Origin: a virus | Lineage: Duplodnaviria > Heunggongvirae > Uroviricota > Caudoviricetes | DNA: 15,323 bases | Strand: one strand, 5' to 3' | IMG/VR virus record: IMGVR_UViG_2609459790_000002 | Coordinates: 1 to 15,323 of that record | Shown: in pieces, positions 1-14,797 of the stretch | How the letters are laid out: each line of letters opens with the position of its first letter | How positions within the stretch are numbered: position 1 is the stretch's first letter | Notes under the pieces: generated by a model | Database searches by the model: none | What the model was told of the DNA's origin: nothing | What the model saw: only the letters and a program-made list of their open reading frames with translations | Translations under genes and position numbers: made by a program

Positions 1-8
1 GGCCCGCG

Positions 9-58
<50 letters not shown>

Positions 59-681
59 ATCCCCGCATAGTCATCATCACAGATTTCAATGACATCACCT
101 GGTACATGGCGAAGCCCTTCGGCACCCACGCTGAAGTCCACGGTCTGCGTTTCCAGCAGTTCCGTTTTAATCAGCCACAGCCCGGCTCGGTGCGCCTGCC
201 CCCGCCTGGTACAGCCAAAGGCATCCATCTTCGTGACGTTACGACCGTAACGGGCAATGGCCTGCGTGTCCTCCACAAGCTCTGTCGCCGTCTCCCAGCC
301 GTTATCCGGGTCAATCCAGTTCACCTCAACGGCATTATGGCGGTCCTTCAGGGCGCTGAAGCTGTAGCGGAACGGCGCGCCATCATCCGGCATCACCACA
401 TTACTGCGGTTATAGGTCCACACCTTATCTGATGGTCGGTCCTGCACGAACGTCAGCGTCTGCCCGTTCCATACCGGCATACAGCGCATCGCCGAGCAGA
501 AATCACTGAGAACATCCCACGCCTTACGCTGTGTGGTCAGCCAGGCATTACAGGTGATGCGCGGCTCCGTGCCGCCAAAACCGTCCGGCACCGACTGGTC
601 GCAACACTGGCCGATGACATACAGCGCCCATTTATCCACATCTGCCGCACCAAGACGTTTACCCATGCCGTAGCGCGGGTG
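59..681 (-). pseudogene. Internal fragment of a lambda J-like tail tip / host-specificity protein (no start, no stop in window)
   Basis: Minus-strand frame whose codons end at plus coordinates divisible by 3 is open from about 681 down to 59. Hand-translated segments: KRLGAADVDKWRLYVIGQCCDQSVPDGFGGTEPRITCNAWLTTQRKAWDVLSDFCSAMRCMPVWNGQTLTFVQDRPSDKVWTYNRSNVVMPDDGAPFRYS (361-660), NVTKMDAFGCTRRGQAHRAG (181-240), EGLRHVPGDVIEICDDDYAGISIG (59-130). I recognise this from memory as the central region of lambda gpJ. Absent from the ORF track because it has no stop codon. Confidence 0.65.
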
Positions 682-916
682 GCTGGAGATCTGTCTCGCT
701 GGCCTGCCGCAGTTCTTCAACTTCCCGGCGCAGCTTTTCGTTCTCAATTTCAGCATCCCTTTCGGCATACCATTTTATGACGGCGGCAGAATCATAAAGC
801 ACCTCATTACCCTTGCCACCGCCTCGCAGAACGGGCATTCCCTGTTCCTGCCAGTTCTGAATGGTACGGATACTCGCACCGAAAATGTCAGCCAGCTGCT
901 TTTTGTTGACTTCCAT
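659..916 (-). pseudogene. nohA: Terminase small subunit Nu1 homologue, truncated after about 79 conserved residues (Qin nohA/nohQ type)
   Basis: Track ORF MEVNKKQLADIFGASIRTIQNWQEQGMPVLRGGGKGNEVLYDSAAVIKWYAERDAEIENEKLRREVEELRQASETDLQP matches the lambda Nu1 N-terminus as I recall it (winged-helix DNA-binding part), then diverges into PALRHG-stop at about nt 680. ATG at 914-916 lies immediately downstream of cosB as in lambda. Confidence 0.8.
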
Positions 917-940
917 TGTTCATTCCACGGACAAAAACAG

Positions 941-1140
941 AGAAAGGAAACGACAAAGGCCAAAAAGCCCGCTTTCAGCACCTGTCGTTTCCTTTCTTTT
1001 CAGGGGGTATTTTAAATAAAAACATTAAGTTACGACGAAGAAGAACGGAAACACCTTAAACCGGAAAATTTTCATAAATAGCGAAAACCCGCGAGGTCGC
1101 CGCCCCGTAACCTGTCGGATCACCGGAAAGGACCCGTAAA
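941..1140 (-). other. Lambda-type cos site: cosB (R1, R2, R3 gpNu1 boxes) and cosN with the 12-nt cohesive-end sequence
   Basis: Minus strand reads GGGCGGCGACCT (plus 1094-1105), the lambda cohesive end. Flanked on one side by the CGTAACCTGTCGGATCACCGGAAAGGACCCGT lambda right-end sequence, on the other by CGCGGGTTTTCGCTATTTATGAAAATTTTCCGG. R3-like box at plus 1042-1054, R2-like 984-997, R1-like 941-954 (CGTTTCC(N)TTCT type). Recognised from memory of the lambda genome ends. Confidence 0.75.
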
Positions 1141-1304
1141 GTGATAATGATTATCATCTACATATCACAACGTGCGTGGAGGCCATCAAACCACGTCAAA
1201 TAATCAATTATGACGCAGGTATCGTATTAATTGATCTGCATCAACTTAACGTAAAAACAACTTCAGACAATACAAATCAGCGACACTGAATACGGGGCAA
1301 CCTC

Positions 1305-1538
1305 ATGTCAACGAAGAACAGAACCCGCAGAACAACAACCCGCAACATCCGCTTTCCTAACCAAATGATTGAACAAATTAACATCGCTCTTGAGCAAAAA
1401 GGGTCCGGGAATTTCTCAGCCTGGGTCATTGAAGCCTGCCGCCGGAGACTGTGCTCAGAAAAAAGAGTTTCTTCTGAAGCAAACAAAGAAAAGAGTGACA
1501 TTACTGAATTGCTCAGAAAACAGGTCAGACCAGATTGA
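1305..1538 (+). CDS. ynfO: Small basic prophage protein (YnfO-like), 77 aa
   Basis: ATG at 1305, first gene after cos; position matches the Qin gene order nohA-ynfO-ydfO. Arg/Thr-rich N-terminus. Symbol assigned by synteny and recollection, not by search. Confidence 0.55.
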   Translation: MSTKNRTRRTTTRNIRFPNQMIEQINIALEQKGSGNFSAWVIEACRRRLCSEKRVSSEANKEKSDITELLRKQVRPD

Positions 1539-1595
1539 AGCAATTTAGATAATCGTGCAGACTACGCCCCCTCATATCACATGGAAGGTTTATCT

Positions 1596-2006
1596 ATGGA
1601 TCAGGTAGTCATTTTTAAACAAATATTTGATAAAGTTCGAAACGATTTAAACTATCAATGGTTTTATTCTGAGCTAAAACGTCACAATGTCTCACATTAC
1701 ATTTACTATTTAGCCACAGAGAATGTTCATATTGTATTAAAAAATGATAATACAGTGTTATTAAAGGGCCTAAAAAACATTGTGTCTGTCAAATTTTCAA
1801 AGGATAGGCATCTTATAGAAACGACCTCTAATAAGCTGAAATCCAGAGAGATCACATTTCAGGAATACAGAAGAAACCTTGCTAAAGCAGGAGTTTTTCG
1901 GTGGGTTACAAATATCCACGAACAAAAAAGATATTACTATACCTTTGATAATTCATTACTATTTACTGAAAGCATCCAGAAAACTACACAGATCTTACCA
2001 CGCTAA
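1596..2006 (+). CDS. ydfO: DUF1398-family prophage protein (YdfO-like), 136 aa
   Basis: Track ORF 1581-2006. The ATG at 1596 has a GGAAGG SD 7 nt upstream (1584-1589) whereas 1581 has none, giving 136 aa. Synteny with Qin ydfO. Confidence 0.6.
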
Positions 2007-2157
2007 ACCATAACGTCCGGCTTCTCTCACTCCTGAGCCGGACTGCATTGGTTTAATAAAAACCATCAACAATTGTGATTTAGATATTCGGAACCATTCA
2101 AATATAACAAAACCCCGTAAAAACGAGGTTTATGGATAAATTTTATTATTGAATACA

Positions 2158-2334
2158 TCAGATTAAATTAATCTTGACATCATAGCTTTCAAGACCCGTC
2201 ATTTTTTCCCGTGCGGTAAACTGAATACTGGTAACTTCTTTCCCGGTCTTTTTCTTAAGTTCAATAATTTTTTTTGTTATATATTCAGAAATATCTGCTT
2301 CTGCTTTTGTTTTTAAGTTTTCAATATTCATCAT
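2158..2334 (-). CDS. gnsB: GnsA/GnsB-family small protein, 58 aa (missed by ORF track, under 60 aa)
   Basis: Hand translation of minus strand: MMNIENLKTKAEADISEYITKKIIELKKKTGKEVTSIQFTAREKMTGLESYDVKINLI, stop TGA at 2158-2160. AAGAGGAA SD 6 nt upstream of tandem ATG ATG (2329-2334). The FTAREKMTGLESYDVK core is the GnsA/GnsB signature as I recall it. Start could be the second ATG (2331). Confidence 0.7.
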   Translation of the reverse strand: MMNIENLKTKAEADISEYITKKIIELKKKTGKEVTSIQFTAREKMTGLESYDVKINLI

Positions 2335-2502
2335 TTCCTCTTTTAGTCTGTTATGACTTTCCAGTTACACAGTAAGTCGATTATATGGTGCAAACGTGTA
2401 AAAGATAAGATGAAACATCGCAATAATCAACATACGATAGTCTAAATTTTACACAAACAGACAAAGAGAATTTTCCTGAATTATCAATGCAATAGCATCA
2501 AA

Positions 2503-2733
2503 TCAACTCAAGAGCCTTATTGCTGCTTCCAGAATTTCTTCTGAAGTAACATGTCGATCCGCGGCTACATAAATGACTTTATGATCTCCGGTCAGAGATG
2601 GAAACCCTGCGGCCATTACAGTAAGGTGTGTTTTTTCGCCATTTGGATATTCACGCATGATGGTGTTAACTCCAGTCATCGCTGGCACTACCACTGCTGG
2701 TTCAGAGTTAAAAAAAACTATGATTTTTTTCAT
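2503..2733 (-). CDS. ynfN: Small hypothetical prophage protein (YnfN-like by position), 76 aa from ATG
   Basis: Track ORF 2503-2775 begins at a TTG; the first ATG is at 2731-2733 (MKKIIVFFNSEPAVVV...). Located between gnsB and cspI as ynfN is in Qin. Start codon is uncertain. Confidence 0.45.
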   Translation of the reverse strand: MKKIIVFFNSEPAVVVPAMTGVNTIMREYPNGEKTHLTVMAAGFPSLTGDHKVIYVAADRHVTSEEILEAAIRLLS

Positions 2734-3004
2734 GATGTTACCGTAGTATGTGAGTATCCATCGAATAGACACCAAGCAAAAAAGCTCCCGAAGGAGCCTT
2801 CATTTTCACTTTTTTAAATCCAACGACAGACGGCTGGCATTTAAGTATTGTGAAATATTATCAAATGTAATCATCATTGATTTACAAAAGATACATTTTG
2901 CCCCGAAAGGATTCATGTCAGAAACATCAAAAGATGATGTTCTATACTGGGAACCATGACAACACGGGCATCTAAAGTGAATATGGTTTGTAATATTGTC
3001 TACC

Positions 3005-3217
3005 TCAAAGCGCCACTACATGAACAGCGGCAGGACCTTTAGGTCCGTTCTCAATACCAAATTCAACTTCCTGATTCTCAGTTAATGTTTTGAAATCGTT
3101 GCTCTGAATTGCTGAGAAATGGACAAACACATCTTTGCTGCCATCTTTCGGCGTGATGAAACCAAAACCTTTTTCAGGGTTAAACCATTTCACTAAACCA
3201 GTCATTTTGTTAGACAT
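3005..3217 (-). CDS. cspI: Cold-shock protein, CspA family, 70 aa
   Basis: [70 protein letters not shown] carries RNP1 (KGFGFI) and RNP2 (VFVHF) motifs. AAGG SD 8 nt upstream of the ATG. Sequence and position match Qin cspI. Confidence 0.9.
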
Positions 3218-3579
3218 AATTATTACCTTTTGAAGAAATTAGCCCTTGGGCAGAATGGTCCGAAAAAAAATATCAGAGAGAAAAACCAACAAGGAAATCT
3301 CAAGAGGTACAAATAATAAAATTATAACAATGACTGCTTCAGATAAATTTGTAACAAACCAGAACACCATTAACGCATGATTAACCACCCATAGCAAGGA
3401 TTACTTTTGTAAAGAAAAACACAGCAATGAAAGAATAGCTTTATTTATTAATAAAACGTGTCATTCTGATTAAGACCTTTTATCTTACCCTTAAGATTTC
3501 AGGAATTTTGGCTCATGGAAGAGTCCTTTTTATTTAAATTTTACATTCCGCGATGTAAATGTTCCGATTTAATATTACC

Positions 3580-4603
<1,024 letters not shown>

Positions 4604-4607
<4 letters not shown>

Positions 4608-4915
4608 AGATATTTATGATGAGGACGCTCGTGCTTATTGGCAGGATTTTCAATCTTAAAGGAGTACTGATGCTGCAGATAAGACTCAACTTTTTCTGAC
4701 AATTTTTCTGCTACTTCCAGGAAGACTTGCCGGACGCTCCTTCTGGCTGCTGCCTCATAAAACTCCAGCGCAGCTCCTTCAACACGGTCCATGGCGACAT
4801 CCAGGTCAAAAATTTCACCGTCAAAGCGTTCTTTGTCCTGTAAGGCTACAGTTACCGTAACTTTATTCTCAAAATTACGGACTCCTTTCACAACCAGTTC
4901 ATAGTCTTGAGTCAT
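4604..4915 (-). CDS. ydfR: Lysis-cassette accessory protein (YdfR / DUF1327-like), 103 aa
   Basis: ATG at 4913-4915 with an AGGAGA SD 8 nt upstream. Sits between holin and endolysin as in Qin. Function unknown. Confidence 0.65.
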
Positions 4916-4919
4916 TGGA

Positions 4920-5135
4920 TTACTCTCCTCTCGCAGCCTTACGCCTGTCTTCTTTAATCTTGAAATAAAGATTTGTCAGATACGTCAGCAGGCCAAAAAC
5001 CAGGCTACCCAGCACACCGATTGCAGCCCACTGTGACGGAGTTACTTTATCGAGTAACTGCAATGCCCAGAAACCAGCATTACCCGCCGATGTGCCATAG
5101 GCAACACCTGTTGTTAACTTATCCATTGATTTCAT
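4920..5135 (-). CDS. essQ: Class II holin (phage 21 S-like) with dual-start motif, 71 aa
   Basis: [71 protein letters not shown] has two TM segments. Met1-Lys-Ser-Met4 is a holin/antiholin dual start. GGTGAGGA SD directly upstream of the ATG at 5133-5135. The track ORF extends to 5210 without SD support. Confidence 0.8.
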
Positions 5136-5354
5136 ATCCTCACCCCGATGTACACGGATGGTGCAATATGTTTGAAAAGATCGGAGTCTACGGGGTAGTT
5201 TTGACAGCACACGTTGTTCTCAACGGCGCTAAAAAAACATACACATTAAAAATGTGGGTAATTATTTTGAAAGAAAGTCATATATAAAATAATAATACGA
5301 GAAATGTTTTCATATTTAGTGTACTGTATACGGCCATTTATACAGGAAAAGCCT

Positions 5355-5525
5355 ATGTCAGAACGTAAAAACTCAAAATCACGCCGTAATTATCTCGTTA
5401 AATGTTCCTGCCCAAACTGCACCCAAGAGTCAGAACACAGTTTTTCAAGAGTACAAAAAGGTGCCCTTTTGATCTGCCCTCATTGCAACAAAGTATTCCA
5501 GACAAATCTTAAAGCTGTAGCCTGA
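5355..5525 (+). CDS. Small zinc-ribbon protein, 56 aa (CxxC...CxxC), possibly the Qin YnfU-type small protein
   Basis: MSERKNSKSRRNYLVKCSCPNCTQESEHSFSRVQKGALLICPHCNKVFQTNLKAVA has two CxxC pairs (CPNC, CPHC). AGGAAAA SD 8 nt upstream of the ATG at 5355. Track ORF 5304-5525 is the longer version. Confidence 0.5.
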   Translation: MSERKNSKSRRNYLVKCSCPNCTQESEHSFSRVQKGALLICPHCNKVFQTNLKAVA

Positions 5526-5577
5526 TTGATTTTATTAGTAACAAGTATTTTTTATATTTTAATAATATATTTAAAGC

Positions 5578-5607
5578 AGATAATAAAAAACCCGCCTGAG
5601 CGGGTTT
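5578..5607 (-). terminator. Rho-independent terminator (minus-strand oriented), between the Zn-ribbon ORF and cspB
   Basis: Stem AAACCCGC (5588-5595) / GCGGGTTT (5600-5607) with a 4-nt loop. On the minus strand it is followed by TTTTTTATTAT; the plus-strand side has a weaker U tract. Confidence 0.55.
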
Positions 5608-5888
5608 GAGATTGTGGTGCTTTTTGTGGGAGTCATCCACTTACGCACTTTGTTTTGCCATGCCAGCAGTTAGCTTCTGCTGTAAAACTATTCATGCAGC
5701 AAACCTGCACTTCACCACAATGGTTAGCATACTTTTCCTGATTAAGATTTTGCCAAATATGCTAGCCATTGTTTCATGTATTGGACCTCCTTACTTTTTA
5801 TTAAAGAGATCCAATATTCACTACTCTGTCCGTATCTCTACTCAGGCATCAGCCTTCTTCGTTATCGTATACAGACGAGCGATGAATT

Positions 5889-6104
5889 TTAATCAGTAAT
5901 GATGACATTTGCTGCTGCAGGACCTTTAGCACCACTCTCTATAGAGAAGGTAACCTTTTGACCTTCAAATAAGGTTCGATAATTATCATTCTGAATCGCA
6001 GAAAAATGCACAAACACATCTTTACTACCATCAACAGGAGAAATAAAGCCGAAACCTTTATCAGCGTTAAACCATTTTACTAAACCAGTCATTTTATTTG
6101 ACAT
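5889..6104 (-). CDS. cspB: Cold-shock protein CspB, 71 aa
   Basis: [71 protein letters not shown] with RNP1/RNP2 motifs. AAGGAA SD 7 nt upstream of the ATG at 6102-6104. Long AT-rich 5' leader region as in csp genes. Confidence 0.9.
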
Positions 6105-6404
6105 TCTACATTCCTTAACTTGAGCCTTTCGGCATAAATGGTTTGCATAACAGAAACGACTTCGTACTTAATTGGAGAGACTCAAAGAAGGAATAAGTGA
6201 ATAACACCTGAAATGAGAACTGCTTTAGTAAACTACTTCGTATATCGTCTGTTCTTCAAACCGACGCAATCATTAACGCATAGTTGAACATATGAAGCAA
6301 TGTTTATTTTAGACATCCAGCCATCTTCAACCCCATCAAAAAACTATAGCTTTCTTCAGGAACGTGTGTATAGTGCGCCAAGTTATCAGTATTAAGGAAT
6401 TTTT

Positions 6405-6617
6405 TTGTCCCGTAAAATGACAGGAATTGTCAAAACCTTTGACGGCAAAAGCGGCAAGGGTCTTATCACCCCATCCGATGGTCGTATCGATGTCCAGCTT
6501 CATGTTTCAGCGCTCAATCTCCGCGATGCAGAAGAAATTACCACCGGATTACGCGTGGAATTTTGCCGGATAAATGGTCTGCGTGGCCCTTCAGCTGCCA
6601 ATGTTTACCTTTCATGA
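6405..6617 (+). CDS. cspF: Cold-shock-protein-family paralogue CspF, 70 aa (TTG start)
   Basis: [70 protein letters not shown]. First codon is TTG at 6405 with an AAGGAA SD 5 nt upstream. Divergent from cspB. RNP motifs are degenerate, as in CspF/CspH. Confidence 0.85.
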
Positions 6618-6671
6618 GCTATATTAAAGCTTTAATTTCAGGCCCCATCGGATCACACATGGAGAGTTTTT

Positions 6672-6761
6672 ATGAATAACCCCGTCTGTCTTGATGACTG
6701 GTTGATTGGCTTTAAAAGCTTATGCTGTACTTTGGCCGTAATAGCTCTGCTAATAATATAA
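6672..6761 (+). CDS. Candidate 29-aa small hydrophobic protein (speculative)
   Basis: ATG at 6672 preceded by GGAGAG (6661-6666) with a 5-nt spacer. [29 protein letters not shown] ends in a hydrophobic stretch. Lies between cspF and the downstream terminator. No homology could be checked. Confidence 0.25.
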
Positions 6762-6907
6762 TAAGCAGACTCATTGTGTTTAGGGACATTGTACTGGAAG
6801 AAAACATTTTAAACATCAGGCAAATAACCAAGTCACCAGCTAAATAATAAGTTAACAGACATGAGTCCCGGGATGAGATTCAACATTACCATTGCCCCAT
6901 TTAAAGC

Positions 6908-6946
6908 ACAAAACCCGCTCATCAGCGGGTTTTCTACTTTTTCTTA
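6908..6946. terminator. Bidirectional rho-independent terminator (cspF terminator on plus strand; tR'-like on minus strand)
   Basis: Stem AAACCCGC (6911-6918) / GCGGGTTT (6925-6932) with a 6-nt loop. Plus strand continues TTTTCTACTTTTTCTT; minus strand continues TTTTGTGCTTT. Lies about 40-60 nt downstream of the predicted late promoter. Confidence 0.6.
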
Positions 6947-6978
6947 ACGTCGGGTATACAAAGCCCATCGTTGAAAAA

Positions 6979-7007
6979 ATTTTATCCATATTTTTTGAAA
7001 AATGCAA
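6979..7007 (-). promoter_or_regulatory. PR'-like sigma70 late promoter immediately downstream of Q (TTGCAT-N17-TAAAAT)
   Basis: On the minus strand: -35 TTGCAT (plus 7002-7007), 17-nt spacer, -10 TAAAAT (plus 6979-6984). Located 30-60 nt after the quuQ stop, the canonical place for the Q-modified late promoter in lambdoid phages. Confidence 0.5.
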
Positions 7008-7038
7008 ACATCATGTCGCCATCTTCAGCAAAAATCAT

Positions 7039-7791
7039 TTATCTCGTCACCTTCCTCAATTGCGCTTCCGCGTATGCTTCTTCCTGCCAGCACTTTGTTA
7101 CCAGTTTACCAATGACGTCCGCATACCCCTTATACCACTGATAATCGGTCAGGTCTGGTACCAGCTTCTGGACATGACGTCGTGCCAGCGTGGTCGGTAA
7201 ACGACTAAACCGGTTTCCATTACAACGCCCACAAATCTTATATACCGGTACGCCATGAAACCGGGTTCTTTTTTCATCCAGAACAATCCCTTTACCCTTA
7301 CACCCTCTGCACGCTGTGCTGGCTTCGCCCTTACCATGGCAATGCTGACATAGTTCCTTCACCCATTCTTCCTTGATTACAGATTCCCCGCGTCTGTAGT
7401 GTTTCACCACTTCGCGCAATACATTATAAAATCCCGTACCTGAACAATGCTCACAGCGAGCCTTACTTGCCGCAGACCTGGAGTAATCAGCAAAGGCAAA
7501 ACTCACGAGGTAAGGAATAATCTGTAACCGGATTTCTTCACTCAATTTGTTCAATGTCGGGTTATCCAGTGCCATCGCGTAATTTAGCAGGCCTTCAATC
7601 GCAAACTGAGGGTCCTGAACACCAACTTTTGCCAGAAATAAGGCCAACCCAAGTGGTGCTTTCGACTGCACCATCCCCTGCGCTGCCATTACATCCGTAA
7701 TTGTTAAACAACCGGTGCCTGTCGCTGGAGCGTCATCGCTCAATTTTGGAGATTTTGGGGAGTAATATTTTGGTAAGGCTTCAAGGTTCAT
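7039..7791 (-). CDS. quuQ: Late-gene antiterminator Q (phage 82/21-type) with four CxxCxGxG zinc-finger repeats, 250 aa
   Basis: ATG at 7789-7791 (MNLEALPKYY...) with a GGAG SD about 7 nt upstream. Track ORF extends to 7821 but would overlap the upstream gene by 17 nt. Contains CEHCSGTG, CQHCHGKG, CRGCKGKG, CGRCNGNR. Position between ydfU and the late promoter matches Q. Confidence 0.8.
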   Translation of the reverse strand: MNLEALPKYYSPKSPKLSDDAPATGTGCLTITDVMAAQGMVQSKAPLGLALFLAKVGVQDPQFAIEGLLNYAMALDNPTLNKLSEEIRLQIIPYLVSFAFADYSRSAASKARCEHCSGTGFYNVLREVVKHYRRGESVIKEEWVKELCQHCHGKGEASTACRGCKGKGIVLDEKRTRFHGVPVYKICGRCNGNRFSRLPTTLARRHVQKLVPDLTDYQWYKGYADVIGKLVTKCWQEEAYAEAQLRKVTR

Positions 7792-7804
7792 GCTCGTTCT
7801 CCAC

Positions 7805-8854
7805 TTACGCCAGTACGCCAATTGCCAGCGCGCGATCGATAAAACGAAATATCAGCTCCAGTTGGGAGCCATACTTATCTTCAAATGCCACTGTATCCGT
7901 ATGCAGCTCGTTGTGATGCTTTCTGCACAAAGGCAACACAAAGAGATCATGTGCTTTTGTTCCCATTCCGCCCTGCCCGTGACCAATCAGATGATGCGGA
8001 TCGTCGGCTGGCATACCGCAGCAAGCACACGGCTGTGTCTTAACCCAACGTGTGTATTTCTCCTTAACCCAGCGGCGACGTTTAGGCAGCTTCATGAAAG
8101 ATTCCGGAGACTCTGGATCAACGGTGATGCTTACCACCGTCTTTTCCTGTGGTGATTTTTGTTGCTGGTGGGCGTAAGGCAACGGTGCAAGATTTTTTGT
8201 GCGTTGTTTCAATATGCTGGTGGCGGTCTGCTCTCCCGGTACGATGTCGCTTTCGCGGTACACCGAGCAGATTTTTTCCGCTGGTAATCCCAGCGAACGA
8301 CGCGATACAGCCTCAGGTAGTGCATCCACCACCTGATTGCAGACCGCCCACCAGGATAATTCAGCCAAAGATAATTCCCGCTCCTGCGTACCGCTTATTG
8401 CGTGACGGATGACGTCAATCACCCATGCTGTCAGATTTTGTTGAGCAAGCAGCTCCAGTGATTCCGATGTCTGGTCACGCAGTTGGTTGTCGCAGTGCCA
8501 GCACAACACCATTGCGCCGGTACCATAACGGTGAATGACTGTTTCAGTGTGATGGTAATCGCCATTAGGCCACTGGCAGGATGTAACATGACGTAATAGC
8601 CAGTCGGACAATGCGCCAACGCCGCCAGCAGCACGAATCACCCGTTCGTTACTAAAAAACGGCAGCAATGTTTTGTCTTCCGCCAGCGGCTGGCGAACGG
8701 CAGGAACGACTCCGGATGGCAGATTACGCATGCTTTTTGGTTCCGGTTCCACCAGCACTCGAGGATTATGAAATATCTGTATGGATTCACGGCCCGGCTT
8801 AAGGACCACCAGCCCAAGCTCAGGCACCAGAACAGGTCTAAGTAATACCCGCAC
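7805..8854 (-). CDS. ydfU: DUF968-family prophage protein YdfU-like with C-terminal HNH-like Cys/His motif, 349 aa
   Basis: Chosen start is GTG at 8852-8854 with GGAGG 4 nt upstream, one nt after the TAA of the upstream ORF. Track ORF extends to 8893 (GTG, no SD); first ATG at 8731 has no SD. C-terminus has CACCGMPADDPHHLIGHGQGG...LCRKHHNELH. Confidence 0.65.
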   Translation of the reverse strand: MRVLLRPVLVPELGLVVLKPGRESIQIFHNPRVLVEPEPKSMRNLPSGVVPAVRQPLAEDKTLLPFFSNERVIRAAGGVGALSDWLLRHVTSCQWPNGDYHHTETVIHRYGTGAMVLCWHCDNQLRDQTSESLELLAQQNLTAWVIDVIRHAISGTQERELSLAELSWWAVCNQVVDALPEAVSRRSLGLPAEKICSVYRESDIVPGEQTATSILKQRTKNLAPLPYAHQQQKSPQEKTVVSITVDPESPESFMKLPKRRRWVKEKYTRWVKTQPCACCGMPADDPHHLIGHGQGGMGTKAHDLFVLPLCRKHHNELHTDTVAFEDKYGSQLELIFRFIDRALAIGVLA

Positions 8855-8855
8855 G

Positions 8856-9134
8856 TTACCTCCAGATCCGTTGCTGGAAAGTGCGGGACGCACGTGGTGG
8901 GCGTTCGGAATAAGGCAGCCTGACAGAGATTATCCAGTGCCGATAGTCGAGACTGAGAGCTTTCTTAACCTCGAACCCGCGCCTGCGGTAAGAATGAATC
9001 AGCCATTCGGCCTGTTCTGCAGTGCATGGAGGGTGCTGGAACCATTCAGACTTGAATGCGTGAGAATACCGCCCGTGCGTGCAGGCAAGAACGGGCGAAT
9101 TATCAGAATTGTAATATTTTGCGTTGCGTGCCAT
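8856..9134 (-). CDS. Hypothetical 92-aa prophage protein, translationally coupled to ydfU
   Basis: ATG at 9132-9134 with a GGAGAA SD 5 nt upstream. Its stop TAA (8856-8858) abuts the ydfU GTG. Protein MARNAKYYNSDNSPVLACTHGRYSHAFKSEWFQHPPC... is not recognised. Confidence 0.5.
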   Translation of the reverse strand: MARNAKYYNSDNSPVLACTHGRYSHAFKSEWFQHPPCTAEQAEWLIHSYRRRGFEVKKALSLDYRHWIISVRLPYSERPPRASRTFQQRIWR

Positions 9135-9200
9135 CGGTTTTCTCCGGTGGCACGGTGTTACTCAGCGGGAGTTCAGCCCCGCGCAAGATTGTAGATGAGT

Positions 9201-9452
9201 TTATTCTCCTGAAAAAGCAGAAAAGCCAGCTTTTATTCCGATCTCTTTCAATGCCTGTAATGAAGTGACAAACTCACCTTCGCGCAAGATAAATCCGTCC
9301 GTGACCCGAGCATCCACAAAATTAATTAACGCAGCCCCATTCTTTCGCAAACACATAATGCGGTAATGACTAACAAGATTTCCATTTTCAACGCACACAG
9401 CATAGAGGCCATCTTCACAAAAAATTTTACGCAGTTCTTCGATGTTCATCAT
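9201..9452 (-). CDS. rem: Small prophage protein Rem-like, 83 aa
   Basis: Tandem ATG ATG at 9447-9452 with a GGAAGGA SD 5 nt upstream. Its position immediately downstream of the relBE-hokD terminator matches rem in Qin. Identity by synteny and length only. Confidence 0.55.
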   Translation of the reverse strand: MMNIEELRKIFCEDGLYAVCVENGNLVSHYRIMCLRKNGAALINFVDARVTDGFILREGEFVTSLQALKEIGIKAGFSAFSGE

Positions 9453-9565
9453 CAGAATCCTTCCGGATAATTAGCTCTCCCCTTTAAGGGACCATCCCTC
9501 TTATCCCTGCGCGCTACTTAAGTATTTTTGATTCTATTCCGGCACCGTCCAGAACTTCAAACGCG

Positions 9566-9600
9566 TTGAAAATAAAAACAAAAACCCGCCGAAGCGGGTT
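9566..9600 (-). terminator. Rho-independent terminator of the relB-relE-hokD operon
   Basis: Stem AACCCGC (9583-9589) / GCGGGTT (9594-9600) with a CGAA loop. On the minus strand it is followed by TTTTTGTTTTTATTTT. About 68 nt downstream of the hokD stop. Confidence 0.65.
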
Positions 9601-9668
9601 AAGTGCGGGTGCGTTGAGGATGCCTGCCACATCAGAGGTGGCGAGGGATTTCTCCCCCGCCGGGTCTC

Positions 9669-9824
9669 TTACTCCTCAGGTTCGTAAGCTGTGAAGACAG
9701 CGACCTCCGTCTGGCCGGTTCGGATTCGTACCTCGCAGAGGTCTTTCCTCGTTACCAGTGCCGTCACTATGACGGTTAAACAGATGACGATCAGGGCGAT
9801 TAACATCGCCTTTTGCTGCTTCAT
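9669..9824 (-). CDS. hokD: Hok-family type I toxin HokD (RelF), 51 aa (missed by ORF track, under 60 aa)
   Basis: Hand translation: MKQQKAMLIALIVICLTVIVTALVTRKDLCEVRIRTGQTEVAVFTAYEPEE. ATG at 9822-9824 with an AGGAGA SD 8 nt upstream; TAA stop at 9669-9671. Hok signature TM helix and LCE motif; third gene of the relBE operon. Confidence 0.85.
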   Translation of the reverse strand: MKQQKAMLIALIVICLTVIVTALVTRKDLCEVRIRTGQTEVAVFTAYEPEE

Positions 9825-9895
9825 AGCCTGCTTCTCCTGTCAACGCAAAGCAGAAGTGTCACCTTCGGTGCGAAACAGAGATGTCATGCTTTGGT

Positions 9896-10183
9896 TCAGA
9901 GAATGCGTTTGACCGCCTCGCTATATACTTCCGAGCGTTCTCTTTTCCCAACAGAAATCACGAAAACGACAACTTTCTCGTCTATAACCTGGTATACAAG
10001 GCGATAGCCTGAAGACCGGAGCTTAATCTTGTAACAATCAGGCATACCACGGAGCTTGTTTGCTTCAATCCGGGGTGACTCAAGTACTTCAACCAGCTTC
10101 TTTTTCAACTGTTCACGTACCGTCGAGCCCAGCTTTCGCCATTCCTTTAGTGCCCGCTCGTCAAAATCCAGAAAATACGCCAT
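9896..10183 (-). CDS. relE: Type II toxin RelE (ribosome-dependent mRNA interferase), 95 aa
   Basis: MAYFLDFDERALKEWRKLGSTVREQLKKKLVEVLESPRIEANKLRGMPDCYKIKLRSSGYRLVYQVIDEKVVVFVISVGKRERSEVYSEAVKRIL is recognised as E. coli RelE. Its ATG overlaps the relB TGA (TGATG). Confidence 0.92.
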   Translation of the reverse strand: MAYFLDFDERALKEWRKLGSTVREQLKKKLVEVLESPRIEANKLRGMPDCYKIKLRSSGYRLVYQVIDEKVVVFVISVGKRERSEVYSEAVKRIL

Positions 10184-10422
10184 CAGAGTTCATCCAGCGT
10201 CACACGTACTGGCTTAGGATTACGAAGCCGTTCTTTCACTATCTCCACAAGTTCAGCATCTTCATCACTCAGGAGTGTCTGTTTGAACGGCAAGCGTTCA
10301 TTGTCAGCGATATACTCGAGCATGAGACGAAGCGCTTCAGAAGGAGTTACACCCATTTTTTCAAGCGCGGCGTAAGAACGCGCTTTAAGTTCATCGTCAA
10401 TACGCAGGTTAATGCTACCCAT
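10183..10422 (-). CDS. relB: Type II antitoxin RelB (RHH DNA-binding), 79 aa
   Basis: MGSINLRIDDELKARSYAALEKMGVTPSEALRLMLEYIADNERLPFKQTLLSDEDAELVEIVKERLRNPKPVRVTLDEL is recognised as E. coli RelB. AGAGGTG SD upstream of the ATG at 10420-10422. Confidence 0.92.
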   Translation of the reverse strand: MGSINLRIDDELKARSYAALEKMGVTPSEALRLMLEYIADNERLPFKQTLLSDEDAELVEIVKERLRNPKPVRVTLDEL

Positions 10423-10475
10423 GTCTTACACCTCTTGTAATTACAAATGTCATTACAAGTATCGCACTACAACAT
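10423..10475 (-). promoter_or_regulatory. relBE promoter/operator region (relO) with TTGTAAT-type repeats
   Basis: Directly upstream of relB: CTTGTAATTACAAATGTCATTACAAG contains inverted and direct TTGTAAT / ATTACAA repeats, consistent with the RelB-RelE-bound operator. Confidence 0.55.
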
Positions 10476-10571
10476 GCTTAGGGCAAGTCACGAAGGAAGT
10501 CAGAAAGTAGTCGTAAGAACGGTGATCACTGTCCGCTTTGTGCCAGAAGCGGATGTTACTTCTTGCATATT

Positions 10572-11483
10572 TCAATTTTCTTCTCCCCACAGCGGTGTAT
10601 CTCCTAACGCTTTAGCAATAAAATCAACAAAGCTGCGAACCTTGAAAGGAATACGGATCGCGCTGGGATAAACAGCCTGAATAGTAAGTTCAGTCGTCCG
10701 GTATGCTGGCAGCAGCTTTATCAGCTTGCCCTGCTTAATATGCTCGCCAAAAACAAAGTTGGGCCCGTAAGCAATGCCTGTTCCGGCCAGTACGGATTCA
10801 AGAAGCAACTGAATGTTATTGGCAGTCATACGGCATGGGCCTTCAATACTGTGCGGCCTGCCTTGTGCATCATAAATCGTCCAGTCTCCCGCTGAAACCG
10901 CCTGGCTGAACGCCAGTCGAGGCGCACGGGAAAGATCATCCGGCGTCTCTGGTGTGCCATGTTTTTTCAAATACTCCGGTGAAGCGCACAAAACCATCCT
11001 GCAAGGTGCCAGCCGCCGCGTAACCAGTGTCGGATCCTCAAAACGCCCAACTCGGATGGCAACATCGATTCGATTTTCGAGCAGATCGGCGTATTTATCC
11101 TCCAGTACAACGTCCAGACTGACCTCCGGAAATTGCTCCAGGTAGCGTGATACGATCCTACCAAGATGCATTGCACCGAAGGCGACCGGTGCTGCAACGC
11201 GAAGCAACCCCTTCGGTGTTTTCTGAACATCACTGGCTTCCCGGTTCGCATCCTCAAGAACCTCAAGAATAACTTTGCAACGTTCATAATACCGCTCACC
11301 GGCATCCGTCAGGCTAAGACGGCGTGTTGAACGCTGAAGAAGTCGTACATTTAGATCAGATTCTATAGCGCTGACATGCTTTCCTGCCATTGCAGCCGAA
11401 AGCTTAAAACGTCTCGCGGCGGCGGCGAAACTGCCTTCATCCACTGCCGCGATAAAAATCTGCATGCTGGTGAACCTGTCCAT
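10572..11483 (-). CDS. LysR-family transcriptional regulator (LTTR), 303 aa
   Basis: N-terminal wHTH signature MDRFTSMQIFIAAVDEGSFAAAARRFKLSAAMAGKHVSAIESDLNVRLLQRSTRRLSLTDAGERYY followed by a substrate-binding domain. Divergent from the adjacent hydrolase gene. Confidence 0.85.
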   Translation of the reverse strand: MDRFTSMQIFIAAVDEGSFAAAARRFKLSAAMAGKHVSAIESDLNVRLLQRSTRRLSLTDAGERYYERCKVILEVLEDANREASDVQKTPKGLLRVAAPVAFGAMHLGRIVSRYLEQFPEVSLDVVLEDKYADLLENRIDVAIRVGRFEDPTLVTRRLAPCRMVLCASPEYLKKHGTPETPDDLSRAPRLAFSQAVSAGDWTIYDAQGRPHSIEGPCRMTANNIQLLLESVLAGTGIAYGPNFVFGEHIKQGKLIKLLPAYRTTELTIQAVYPSAIRIPFKVRSFVDFIAKALGDTPLWGEEN

Positions 11484-11595
11484 AACTTACCACCATTCGA
11501 TAATCAGAGTATCGGCTGTCGACACAATTACGCTGATTATCATCACTCATGACAGCAATTACCATTACCTTAATGACATGAAGAGGCATGAGACG

Positions 11596-12756
11596 ATGAA
11601 AATTAAGGTGAATGGAACGGGTATCCACATTGAGCAACAGGGCAGCGGTGAAATTGCACTGGTATTTTTGCATTATTATGGCGGTTCATCCCGTACATGG
11701 GAGAGCGTGATAAGTCAGTTACCTGACCACTACCGCACAGTTGCAATCGACCACCGGGGCTGGGGGGGCTCAGACGCACCTAAATCAGGATACCGAATTG
11801 GTGACCTTGCTCGGGATGCCGAAGGGGTTATTTCAGCGCTTGAGCTTAAACGCTACATTCTTATTGGCCATTCGATGGGGGGAAAAGTTGCCCAACTGAT
11901 GGCGTCGCGTCGGCCTGCAGGTCTTGAAGGCCTGATGCTTATCGCTCCCTCTCCACCTTCACCTATGCGTCTCACGCCTGAGCAGCGCGATACGTTATCC
12001 AGCGCATATAACAGCCGCGAATCTGTCGGCTTTGTGATTGATAATGTCCTGACAGCGGGGGCACTAAGTTCTGCTCTGCGTGAACAGGTAATCGAGGACA
12101 GTTTGAGGGCCTCATCCGAGGCCAAAGAAGGCTGGCCTAATACGGCTATCGGCGAAGACATTACCCAGGAAGTGGCCTCAATTAATGTCCCTGTGACGGT
12201 CATTTCAGGGGAGTTGGATCGTGTAGACCTTCCGGCTACTCTGCAAAGAGAATTGCTGCCCCTTATTTCACATGCATCAATGTATATTATTCCAGACGTC
12301 GGACATCTCTTGCCTCTGGAGGCCCCTACAGAGGTCGCCAGCCACCTGTTAAAATTTACAGCCGCCATTGAAGGGGGGACAGCAGTCTACCATTCGCCTG
12401 TCGAAACGATAGCCGCGTTTGATGATGCTTTCAATGCAGGCAGGGTTGATGACCTGCTGGCTCTGTTCAGTAACCGTGCCACTATGAAAATGACTGATGG
12501 TGTGGTCATCGAAAGCGATCCTGAAAAGCTTCGGGACACTTTTTTGTCACTGACATCATCCCAGCCAGTTATCAGAAACCATATCCGCTCGATCCTCTCC
12601 GCCGGTGAAATTGCTCTGCTTATTATTGACTGGACTTTGACCATAACCACCAAGGATAGAACACTGCACGAAGAGTCCGGTACAGCAACGCAGGTGTTGT
12701 TGCGAAGCGTTGACGGAGGTTGGCGGCTGCTGATTTCAAATCCATCAGGAACGTAG
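11596..12756 (+). CDS. Alpha/beta-hydrolase fused to a C-terminal NTF2-like / SnoaL-like domain, 386 aa
   Basis: ATG at 11596 with an AAGAGG SD 9 nt upstream; earlier in-frame ATGs at 11464 and 11578 lack an SD and would overlap the LysR start. Nucleophile elbow GHSMGG, HRGWGGSD motif, His in PDVGHLLPLE. The C-terminal 115 aa (AAFDDAFNAGRVDDLLALFS...WRLLISNP) is NTF2/SnoaL-like. Confidence 0.8.
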   Translation: MKIKVNGTGIHIEQQGSGEIALVFLHYYGGSSRTWESVISQLPDHYRTVAIDHRGWGGSDAPKSGYRIGDLARDAEGVISALELKRYILIGHSMGGKVAQLMASRRPAGLEGLMLIAPSPPSPMRLTPEQRDTLSSAYNSRESVGFVIDNVLTAGALSSALREQVIEDSLRASSEAKEGWPNTAIGEDITQEVASINVPVTVISGELDRVDLPATLQRELLPLISHASMYIIPDVGHLLPLEAPTEVASHLLKFTAAIEGGTAVYHSPVETIAAFDDAFNAGRVDDLLALFSNRATMKMTDGVVIESDPEKLRDTFLSLTSSQPVIRNHIRSILSAGEIALLIIDWTLTITTKDRTLHEESGTATQVLLRSVDGGWRLLISNPSGT

Positions 12757-12936
12757 TGAGTTCAGTAAGAATAGCTTGCGCTAGCAATATCGCGTGGCTG
12801 CAGAGAGGTAAGTGACATCCGCCACCACCCGCATGCCGTTTTAAGGCATGCGGTAATAACGATGAGCGCAAGATTGCTGTTATGTCTTGCTGCTTTCGGA
12901 GCGCCTGCTTTTCGCTCTTAGCGGACATTAGCATAG

Positions 12937-14499
12937 GCTATTTACCATAACGCCTCATTACGCGCACCGCCCAGACTGACTCAGCGCGTTTCTGGCATAT
13001 CCCCGGTAAAACAAGTAACAAACCACCCGAAAATGAACACCAGAAACGCGACTTAAGAATCTACCCTATGAATGGATATGCACTCAACCGAATCGATCTT
13101 GGTTTCAATCTTTTTTATCGGGATCAGGCTTCTTTTTAGGTAACTTCGGGGGCTTAACTTGCTGATGACTTTGCGTTCGGCGCGTAAGCCAGGGATGGTC
13201 AGCTTTAGGTTTAACATAGTATTTTGAGCGTAAATCAATACGGGCATTATCCACTCGTTCATGGACACTCTTTTCATCATCCAGTGGTATAGGCTCCGGG
13301 CCATCAACATACTTTTCCCAGCCCAGCGCTTTCCCGTCATACAGAACGTTAATTTCACCGTCAAAGTTCTCGCATACAGTAACAACCGAATGCCTAAGTC
13401 GATATCCCCGGCCCTCACTGCGTACCTGAAACGCACTGCTTTTGTACTGGAAAGTGAGATTTTTAGACAGAACGCGCTTCGCCTGTAGGCTGAAGATATA
13501 ACCCAGTTCCTCTTCAGAATGGTGCACATCAAGATGAGCATTATCAGTAGTACGAGGCGACGTAGCGAACCGGTTGTTATAGGCTTCAATAAAGGTCGGC
13601 AACCATGCATTTGCTGTTTCAATATCACTGATATTCTGAAGCCGCATTTCTTTGACCAGCCTGTCCTGTAGTGTCTGATTGGCGCGCTCTACCCGCCCTT
13701 TTGCCTGCGGGCTGTTGGCATGGATTGGCTCGATGCCCAGTGTCTTTATCGCACGAGTGAACTGGGTCAGCTCACCTTCCCGCTCTGGGTTATTTACCCT
13801 GAATATACTGTGTCTATCAGAGTAGAGAGCGAGCGGTACGCCATGATCATTAAGGTAACCCCGGAGGGTTTCCATGTAAGCCCGGGTTGTTTCAGCAGGC
13901 ACAAAACGCAACGCCATCAACGCACTGGTGGCATCATCAATGAAAACGATCAGTGTACATCTGGGGCCTCGATTTTCAAACCAGTCATGAGGTGAGCCAT
14001 CAATCTGGATCAGTTCACCGTAAGATGGTCGTCGCATGCGGCGTTGATATATACGGGCAATTTTACGACGGCGTTCACGCCATAACCCCTCTTCTATCAT
14101 CCACTTTCTGAGAGTTTCAACGGATAAAGATAAACCGTGTATCTCGCGCAATTTTTCGCACGCAAACGTAGGTCCAAAATCAGCGTAACGGCCTTTGAGG
14201 AGTGAAATTACTGTTGCTCTGAATTCAGTAGAAAAGGAATTATTAGGACGCTTTCCACGTCGGTGGGAAACCAGACCAGAAGGCCCTTCATTTCTATACC
14301 GTTGCACCAGACGTTTAACCTGCCGAATAGAAATGCCAATGCGTGCCGCAGCTTGTTCCTGAATAATCTGAAGTCGGTGGAGTTCCTTATGACTCATCGT
14401 AACAGTCTCTTTGATCATGAAAAATCCCCCAGAGAATTGTCTGGGGACATTTTAGAATGGTTCAAAGGGGACATTACAGCTTGGTGTTAACAATAGCCT
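12937..14499 (-). mobile_element. Insertion sequence carrying the 437-aa DDE transposase; terminal inverted repeats not resolved (ends approximate)
   Basis: Single transposase gene with about 80-170 nt flanks. The only candidate terminal match found by eye is AGGCTATT (12937-12944) against AATAGCCT (14492-14499), which is at chance level. Boundaries are therefore provisional. Confidence 0.35.
13105..14418 (-). CDS. DDE transposase with rve integrase-core domain (IS481/ISNCY-like), 437 aa
   Basis: N-terminal HTH (GISIRQVKRLVQRYRNEGPSGLVSHRRGKRP), DDE-type core (LIQIDGSPHDW..., LALYSDRHSIF, ...RVERANQTLQ) and a Lys/Pro-rich basic tail. ATG at 14416-14418 with a GGGGGA SD. Family assignment is from motif recollection only. 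Confidence 0.8.
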   Translation of the reverse strand: MIKETVTMSHKELHRLQIIQEQAAARIGISIRQVKRLVQRYRNEGPSGLVSHRRGKRPNNSFSTEFRATVISLLKGRYADFGPTFACEKLREIHGLSLSVETLRKWMIEEGLWRERRRKIARIYQRRMRRPSYGELIQIDGSPHDWFENRGPRCTLIVFIDDATSALMALRFVPAETTRAYMETLRGYLNDHGVPLALYSDRHSIFRVNNPEREGELTQFTRAIKTLGIEPIHANSPQAKGRVERANQTLQDRLVKEMRLQNISDIETANAWLPTFIEAYNNRFATSPRTTDNAHLDVHHSEEELGYIFSLQAKRVLSKNLTFQYKSSAFQVRSEGRGYRLRHSVVTVCENFDGEINVLYDGKALGWEKYVDGPEPIPLDDEKSVHERVDNARIDLRSKYYVKPKADHPWLTRRTQSHQQVKPPKLPKKKPDPDKKD

Positions 14500-14797
14500 G
14501 CTTCTCCGTGCCTTTCGGCACGTAAGAGGCTAACCTACATGTGTCTAGCATGAAATTGGCCTCAGATTAATGTTAAGCGTCTTGCAGGACGCGTAATGTT
14601 AACTGGGGCTTTTCTCTATCTGCCGTTGGTGTCCATGCCCGAGGCAGATAGCCTCAAGCACCCGCAGTCATTCTACTTAACTAAGATTTCCCCGCAAACC
14701 GTTTTTGTCCAGCACAGTAAATATCCAACTAAACCAATGGAGTTCGCTGTATTTACCGCCAGTATTCAATGCACATGACCGCCATGAACACCCCTAA

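Follow-up and report, generated by a model that had tools for sequence, protein, structure and literature searches.

A nu1-J deletion junction as one of several scars in the eroding Qin cryptic prophage of Escherichia coli

The junction between nu1 and J that lies near one end of the 15,323-nucleotide stretch of DNA analysed here (hereafter the window) is very probably an ordinary deletion scar of the Qin prophage, one branch of an erosion made up of many events. The element in the window is Qin, a cryptic lambdoid prophage of E. coli, and positions 46-1105 are the remnant of its packaging end. At least seven deletion versions of this one decaying prophage exist, and the version in the window, here called type C, is one of them. 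In the order of events proposed below, a junction between J and the side-tail-fibre gene stf would have come first. The illegitimate deletion that fused nu1 after codon 79 to codon 282 of J, with the trinucleotide CCA shared between the two, would have followed later, in the course of an ongoing stepwise erosion of the nu1-J interval. What remains at the joint is an intact cos, an 85-aa nu1 stub and an out-of-frame fragment of J.

Alignment to the lambda genome (blastn against NC_001416) locates the joint to within three base pairs. Read on the minus strand, window 1105->680 corresponds to lambda 1-427 with 98.1% identity, a match that spans cosN, cosB and nu1 codons 1-79 and ends ...SETDLQP, and window 682->50 corresponds to lambda 16347-16979 with 94.0% DNA identity. 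Three base pairs, window 680-682 (TGG on the plus strand, CCA on the minus strand), belong to both alignments, and comparison of the parental and junction sequences shows that CCA was kept once. One parental copy encodes Pro79 of nu1 (lambda 425-427) and the other lies in J (lambda 16347-16349). There is no filler DNA, the two lambda-homologous alignments abutting with their 3-bp overlap, and at the joint the J reading frame is +1 relative to nu1. The lambda DNA absent from the joint (lambda 428-16349) amounts to about 15.9 kb and in lambda consists of head and tail genes.

These results agree in most respects with the preliminary description of the DNA, which had placed a junction between nu1 codon ~79 and the middle of a J-like gene. 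The blastn, Pfam and PDB matches all support that junction, and pairwise alignment with lambda Nu1 and J matches both halves and puts the joint at 680-682. The J-like product that had been read on the minus strand in another frame is indeed gpJ, residues 282-490 in frame +1. Its extent had been given as 59-681, but homology continues down to window 46; similarly, a large gap between the two points in lambda is confirmed, but its size is about 15.9 kb as measured and not the 17 kb or so first proposed. A continuous gene across the joint had been named as the finding that would argue against a deletion, and among 50,697 phage records there is none that spans both halves contiguously.

How was the joint made? 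The hallmarks of a short-homology deletion are present, namely CCA in both parents, one copy at the joint and no filler, with a homology of 3 bp only. Chance alone would give an overlap of 3 bp in roughly one of every 20-60 random joins, so the overlap is weak evidence for a microhomology mechanism. The sequence of the joint nevertheless suggests a short-homology deletion independent of RecA, with replication slippage and end-joining as candidate routes. Deletion mediated by an insertion sequence was considered and rejected, as no insertion sequence, transposase ORF or repeat is present at the joint. A search for repeats there found none longer than 10 nt and recovered only the inverted repeat formed by R1 and R2 of cosB. 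No Rfam match falls at the joint, and a promoter and terminator scan of window 1-1600 yielded nothing exceeding shuffled expectation.

On the nu1 side, the minus strand carries a truncated nu1 (nohA-type) ORF of 85 aa at 659-916, identified by Pfam, PDB and ORF translation. It starts MEVNKKQLADIFGASIRTIQNWQEQGMPVLRGGGKGNEV... and ends ...SETDLQPPALRHG before the stop codon (window 916->659), and is made up of gpNu1 residues 1-79 followed by six out-of-frame residues (PALRHG). The ORF matches positions 1-81 of the 164 positions of Pfam Phage_Nu1 (PF07471, E 1e-48), as well as the structures of the lambda gpNu1 N-terminal domain (PDB 6hn7 and 1j9i, the latter over 1-68). Residues 1-79 differ from lambda gpNu1 at a single position, residue 75, which is T instead of A. 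The stub has the N-terminal winged-helix DNA-binding domain and the start of the linker, and is without the C-terminal part responsible for self-assembly and gpA binding (about residues 100-181). It is on this basis a fragment rather than a functional terminase subunit, and in the genome of E. coli BUCT2930 the PGAP/RefSeq annotation describes it as 'terminase small subunit, incomplete, missing C-terminus'.

The J side of the joint is an internal fragment of a lambda J-like tail-tip protein (46-682, minus strand), supported by blastn, Pfam Phage-tail_3 and PDB 8iyk. The J frame reads HPRYGMGKRLGAADVDKWALYVIGQ... and is stop-free to about window 50; translated 681->52, it aligns to lambda gpJ residues 282-490 (PDB 8iyk/9e7m, E 1e-143). 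Identity is 98.4% to phage mEp460 and 94% to lambda. Residues 282 to about 493 of J lie inside the window, and the full gpJ/TipJ architecture is absent from it. In complete genomes with junction C the fragment extends up to codon ~701 of 1132 (lambda nt 17605), where a 207-bp piece from the 3' part of a side-tail-fibre gene takes over, followed by tfaQ and pinQ. An ATG at 664-666 (minus strand), which overlaps the nu1' stop codon (ATGGGTAA), opens a J-frame ORF that is 421 aa long in complete genomes and is called as a gene in loci L024 and L027. RefSeq annotates the J piece of BUCT2930 as 'host specificity protein J, incomplete, missing N- and C-terminus'.

Within the window the J fragment is cut short by positions 1-45, which consist of GGCCCGCG and then exactly 40 C. 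Every genome match starts at window 46; no E. coli genome matches window 1-45, and BUCT2930 (locus L001) has ordinary J sequence there. These 45 positions are most likely a poly-G/C sequencing or assembly artefact at a contig end that cuts off the J remnant, rather than part of the prophage, and the poly-C start suggests that the window begins at the end of a draft contig.

An intact cos site lies upstream of nu1'. The cos region (917-1105, minus strand) has 5 differences from lambda in 190 nt and contains the 12-nt cosN cohesive-end sequence at 1094-1105. The gpNu1-binding repeats are R3 at 1042-1053 (with one substitution), R2 at 986-997 and R1 at 941-952; the inverted repeat I1 detected by the repeat search corresponds to R1/R2. 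Set against lambda, the window has a DNA identity of 98% over cos and nu1 and 94% over J, with the R1-R3 and cosN motifs conserved. Could a truncated nu1' that keeps its whole DNA-binding domain beside its own sites interfere with the packaging of an incoming lambdoid phage? This is speculation; nothing found backs the idea, and no function is ascribed to the joint. Contiguous with cos, as in a prophage, is a homologue of the lambda right end (1106-1304, minus strand; database alignment), and window 680-1300 aligns unbroken, with 98.7% identity, to lambda/DE3 prophage records annotated 'nu1' and 'cos site'.

The genes beyond cos identify the element. The first of these is ynfO (DUF3950; 1305-1538, plus strand), which anchors the Qin identification, and with it come ydfO, gnsB, ynfN, cspI, rzpQ, rrrQ, ydfR, essQ, cspB, cspF, quuQ/ydfT, ydfU, rem, hokD, relE and relB, so that the characteristic Qin gene order from cos rightwards is found in the window. 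Identity to the annotated Qin of BUCT2930 is 99.96% across the 10.5 kb of window 46-10550, and identity to the Qin of K-12 is 99.67% across window 683-4290. The Qin-like identity proposed in the first reading is thereby upheld, by the gene order together with the match to BUCT2930. The Qin of BUCT2930 adjoins ydfJ-ynfT-ydfK-pinQ-tfaQ, and in all complete genomes with the same junction that were inspected the element sits beside ydfJ / ynfT-ydfK-pinQ. Further into the window, Rfam matches at gathering level comprise cspA-type thermoregulator leaders at 2978-3363 (upstream of cspI) and 5873-6265 (upstream of cspB), and a sok antitoxin RNA at 14492-14663, near the right end. Window 13105-14418 (minus strand) holds an uninterrupted ORF for a 437-aa ISNCY-family transposase. 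In BUCT2930 RefSeq divides the identical sequence in two, a transposase pseudogene labelled 'incomplete' and 'ydfW', which covers the last 49 codons, and from this arrangement ydfW appears to be the tail of an ISNCY-family transposase.

The Qin prophage of K-12 (b1544-b1579) is the same element: its gene order and cos agree with those of the window, and its nu1 homologue, likewise truncated, precedes tail-gene debris, tfaQ and pinQ. However, K-12 Qin joins nu1 (to lambda nt 719) directly to stfQ, without J sequence, whereas the window joins 79 nu1 codons to J codon 282 and does not contain the K-12 junction of nohA (189 aa) to stfQ. The window is a different allele of the Qin element of K-12, and the K-12 reference carries a different, independent scar. 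The K-12 genes nohA (189 aa) and stfQ are a deletion fusion in their own right, in which nu1 is followed by out-of-frame stf (L003 7799-8368 and 6886-7848).

More closely related alleles were catalogued with a shared J'-stf' probe, after which each distinct match was inspected. The genomes that fully cover the probe (32/32) all fall into seven types, defined by the lambda DNA that they retain. Type C (the window and 25 genomes) retains lambda 1-427 and 16347-17605. Type B (FDAARGOS_1337) retains 1-699 and 16138-17605, and type A (160-11H1) 1-583 and 15670-17605. Type N (NCTC9040) has kept three segments (1-697, 2179-3464 and 16137-17605), and type T (TB06053, AJ1, 300709 and WS4437A-1) five (1-697, 2179-3501, 5294-5626, 9780-10687 and 15668-17605), giving four internal junctions in the nu1-J interval. 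Type P1 (1332KP) retains 1-956 and 13434-17605, and type P2 (P13-6 and four others) 1-956, 13434-13575 and 16534-17605. The sister Qin alleles, represented by FDAARGOS_1337, 160-11H1, NCTC9040, TB06053, 1332KP and P13-6, have the same flanks, J allele and J-stf junction as the window, but their endpoints in the nu1-J interval are unlike those of the window and several hold gene fragments that the window lacks. The junction of J 17605 to stf' is common to all seven alleles (C, A, B, N, T, P1 and P2). Per 5.5 kb of flank these alleles show 0-5 SNPs (<=0.1% SNP divergence); the left flank of K-12 has 57 SNPs and is about 1% divergent.

Some of the sister alleles keep pieces of A, W, B, C, G, T, H, L, K and I. 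Type T has kept the 3' end of A with W, B, C, G, T and H, whereas the P alleles have kept the 5' end of A with L, K, I and the 5' end of J. As these pieces are complementary, the common ancestor must have carried most of the head-tail region. Insertion sequences are also found in or beside the remnant in several relatives. They are ISCro1 (IS66 family) in cos, where lambda nt 1-137 have been removed, IS1 between ynfO and nu1', and IS3 adjoining pinQ, with part of tfaQ lost (L010 12386-15001, L013 11386 onward, L026 8846-9543 and L006 498-1660). These insertions are further, independent decay events.

The joint had first been described as the scar that makes the prophage defective, and this part of the description is not borne out, because the J 17605-stf junction is found in all seven alleles and is probably older. 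On parsimony, a junction common to all alleles predates their divergence, and hence junction C, by which time the C-terminal part of J (aa ~702-1132) and most of stf would already have been lost. The window ends, in its artefact, before J-stf, and the presence of the older junction next to joint C is read from the 25 complete genomes with the same joint. From these sequences we infer that the nu1-J joint was probably neither the first nor the only inactivating lesion, and that the prophage was defective beforehand. The J-stf junction may, on the other hand, have spread by recombination instead of descent.

The amount of DNA removed by event C could range from 477 bp to about 15.9 kb, depending on the precursor. 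Derivation of C in one step would lose 477 bp from type B, 832 bp from A, 1,766 bp from N, 3,413 bp from P1, 3,504 bp from T and up to 15.9 kb from a less eroded ancestor; P2 was discarded as a precursor, the derivation being impossible. Polarity was assessed from SNPs in about 12 kb of flanks at 17 loci. The pattern is star-like and no SNP ties C to another allele. The C clade has internal polymorphisms of its own and is thus not obviously younger than the other alleles. Type C may be as old as these, and a single step of 15.9 kb may have produced it straight from an ancestor with little erosion.

This leads to the best-surviving of the alternative explanations, in which one deletion of ~16 kb, from nu1 codon 80 to J codon 281, disabled a previously functional lambda-like prophage. 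A single large event would fit endpoints that lie 15.9 kb apart in lambda, an ancestor that must have held most of the head-tail region and flank SNPs that do not connect C to any eroded intermediate. As the disabling event, however, it is unlikely, since parsimony places the J 17605-stf junction of the seven alleles before C, and uneroded copies of the haplotype number 0 in 5,426 complete E. coli genomes. An origin of junction C within a stepwise erosion that had already begun remains the preferred reading.

Are the deletion endpoints of the Qin alleles distributed at random? The 11 junctions recorded for related alleles include three pairs of independent endpoints that lie within 3 bp of each other. 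These are J 15668 (H-J in type T) with J 15670 (nu1-J in type A), J 16137 (B-J in type N) with J 16138 (nu1-J in type B), and nu1 697 (nu1-A in types T and N) with nu1 699 (nu1-J in type B); they are located at L002 3843-3849, L006 4314, L007 11213-11217 and 13773, L008 10749 and 12036, and L005 about 9247. For the two coincidences in J, simulation of uniform, independent endpoints (six endpoints in the 2.1 kb of J) gives p about 5e-4. The endpoints of the window (nu1 427 and J 16347) are not re-used.

Another prophage, DLP12, carries the type B junction (nu1 699 to J 16138) as well, in E. coli B (REL606, BL21), C and ATCC 8739. In these strains DLP12 (nohD-J) likewise has a cos-nu1 remnant joined out of frame to internal J sequence, but it occupies another locus, its endpoints (nu1 nt 699 and J nt 16138) are unlike those of the window, its J is complete to the C-terminus with stf and tfa downstream, and its J allele is about 5% divergent. 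Around the type B junction, DLP12 of REL606 (L005 7777-10303) and the Qin of FDAARGOS_1337 (L002 2376-4902) align gap-free over 2,527 bp with 95.9% identity, including a mismatch-free tract of 388 bp around the joint. The presence of type B in both suggests that this junction either arose more than once, at a 7-bp imperfect microhomology (TGNTACC), or passed between DLP12 and Qin.

More generally, endpoint re-use may reflect hot spots, nested deletions or the exchange of junctions between Qin and DLP12. Structural hot spots might be formed, for example, by palindromes (CACTG...CAGTG/CATCGATG) that lie directly 5' of J 16137. Chi sites were rejected as the cause, there being no GCTGGTGG on either strand in the L007 or L012 remnants. 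Simple nested deletion from N to B or from T to A is possible on paper; it would need endpoints 0-3 bp from older junctions, with microhomology of only 2 bp. That the nu1-J interval as a whole is a record of non-random deletion formation, through hot spots or junction exchange, is a tentative and rather doubtful proposition.

The DLP12 case bears on a second alternative for the window itself, that its junction formed in another lambdoid element, resident or incoming, and entered Qin from there through homologous recombination or gene conversion. Type B, present in DLP12 as well as in the Qin of FDAARGOS_1337, provides a precedent for such a transfer. Junction C, however, occurs only in a Qin context wherever the context was examined (25 complete genomes), with both flanks 100% identical to those of other Qin alleles and no second copy of the junction reported elsewhere, and import is less likely still than a single large deletion. 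Formation of the joint within Qin is again favoured.

The distribution of junction C leaves little doubt about its reality. A 241-bp probe centred on the joint matches 25 of 5,426 complete E. coli genomes in a single piece with 100% identity, and the exact 85-aa fusion product occurs in 2,226 blocks of a public assembly index. Whether related strains share the junction had been raised in the preliminary description, and these 25 genomes and 2,226 index blocks show that they do. Junction C is real and, as the type C allele, is stably inherited on one Qin haplotype. RefSeq annotates both genes as pseudogenes in genomes with the junction, and in the form of the 'incomplete' flags of its pipeline the scar was already on record. 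The weakest alternative, an assembly chimera in the source contig of the window, could appeal to the obvious artefact with which the window opens (40 C) and to a 2.36-kb segment of it that is absent from all complete E. coli genomes, but it is practically refuted by the recurrence of the joint, base for base, in 25 independently finished genomes and thousands of assemblies.

The 2.36-kb segment is a foreign cassette at window 10551-12906 (2,356 bp), which stands in place of a 975-bp segment of ordinary Qin comprising the 3' part of ydfV and flxA. Protein domain matches place two genes in it, on the minus strand one for a LysR-type regulator (10572-11483) and on the plus strand one for an alpha/beta-hydrolase that has a SnoaL-like tail (11596-12756). 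None of 5,426 complete E. coli genomes matches the cassette. Its counterpart in CP4-like integrative islands of other Enterobacterales is a module with 99.8-99.9% identity, and an exact 44-mer from the cassette is present in representatives of Hafnia, Enterobacter, Ewingella, Klebsiella grimontii and Cedecea. The left crossover falls within TGTGCCAG, between GTCCGCTT/AAGCGGAY arms, and the right crossover within the CGCTC of CGCTCAYAGCGGAC. In the islands, the border motifs belong to a unit of ~65 bp that recurs at the boundaries of cargo modules and also adjoins the gene for a 200-aa Xer-like tyrosine recombinase. On sequence grounds the cassette looks like a site-specific cassette exchange. 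Look-up of the border ORF gave no match for the chimeric left border in public assemblies, and an exact 40-mer scan gave none in metagenome contigs; the border is either rare or an assembly chimera. The LysR/hydrolase cassette is unrelated to the nu1-J junction.

A single scar of this kind matters little in itself, and junction C has a modest use as a lineage marker for one Qin allele. If a specific mechanism underlies the re-used endpoints, the erosion of cryptic prophages would be partly directed, and junction C would be a mere bystander in the series. Of wider meaning is the occurrence of seven deletion states on a nearly SNP-free haplotype, according to which this prophage decays by many small and medium-sized deletions at a pace that far outruns point mutation.
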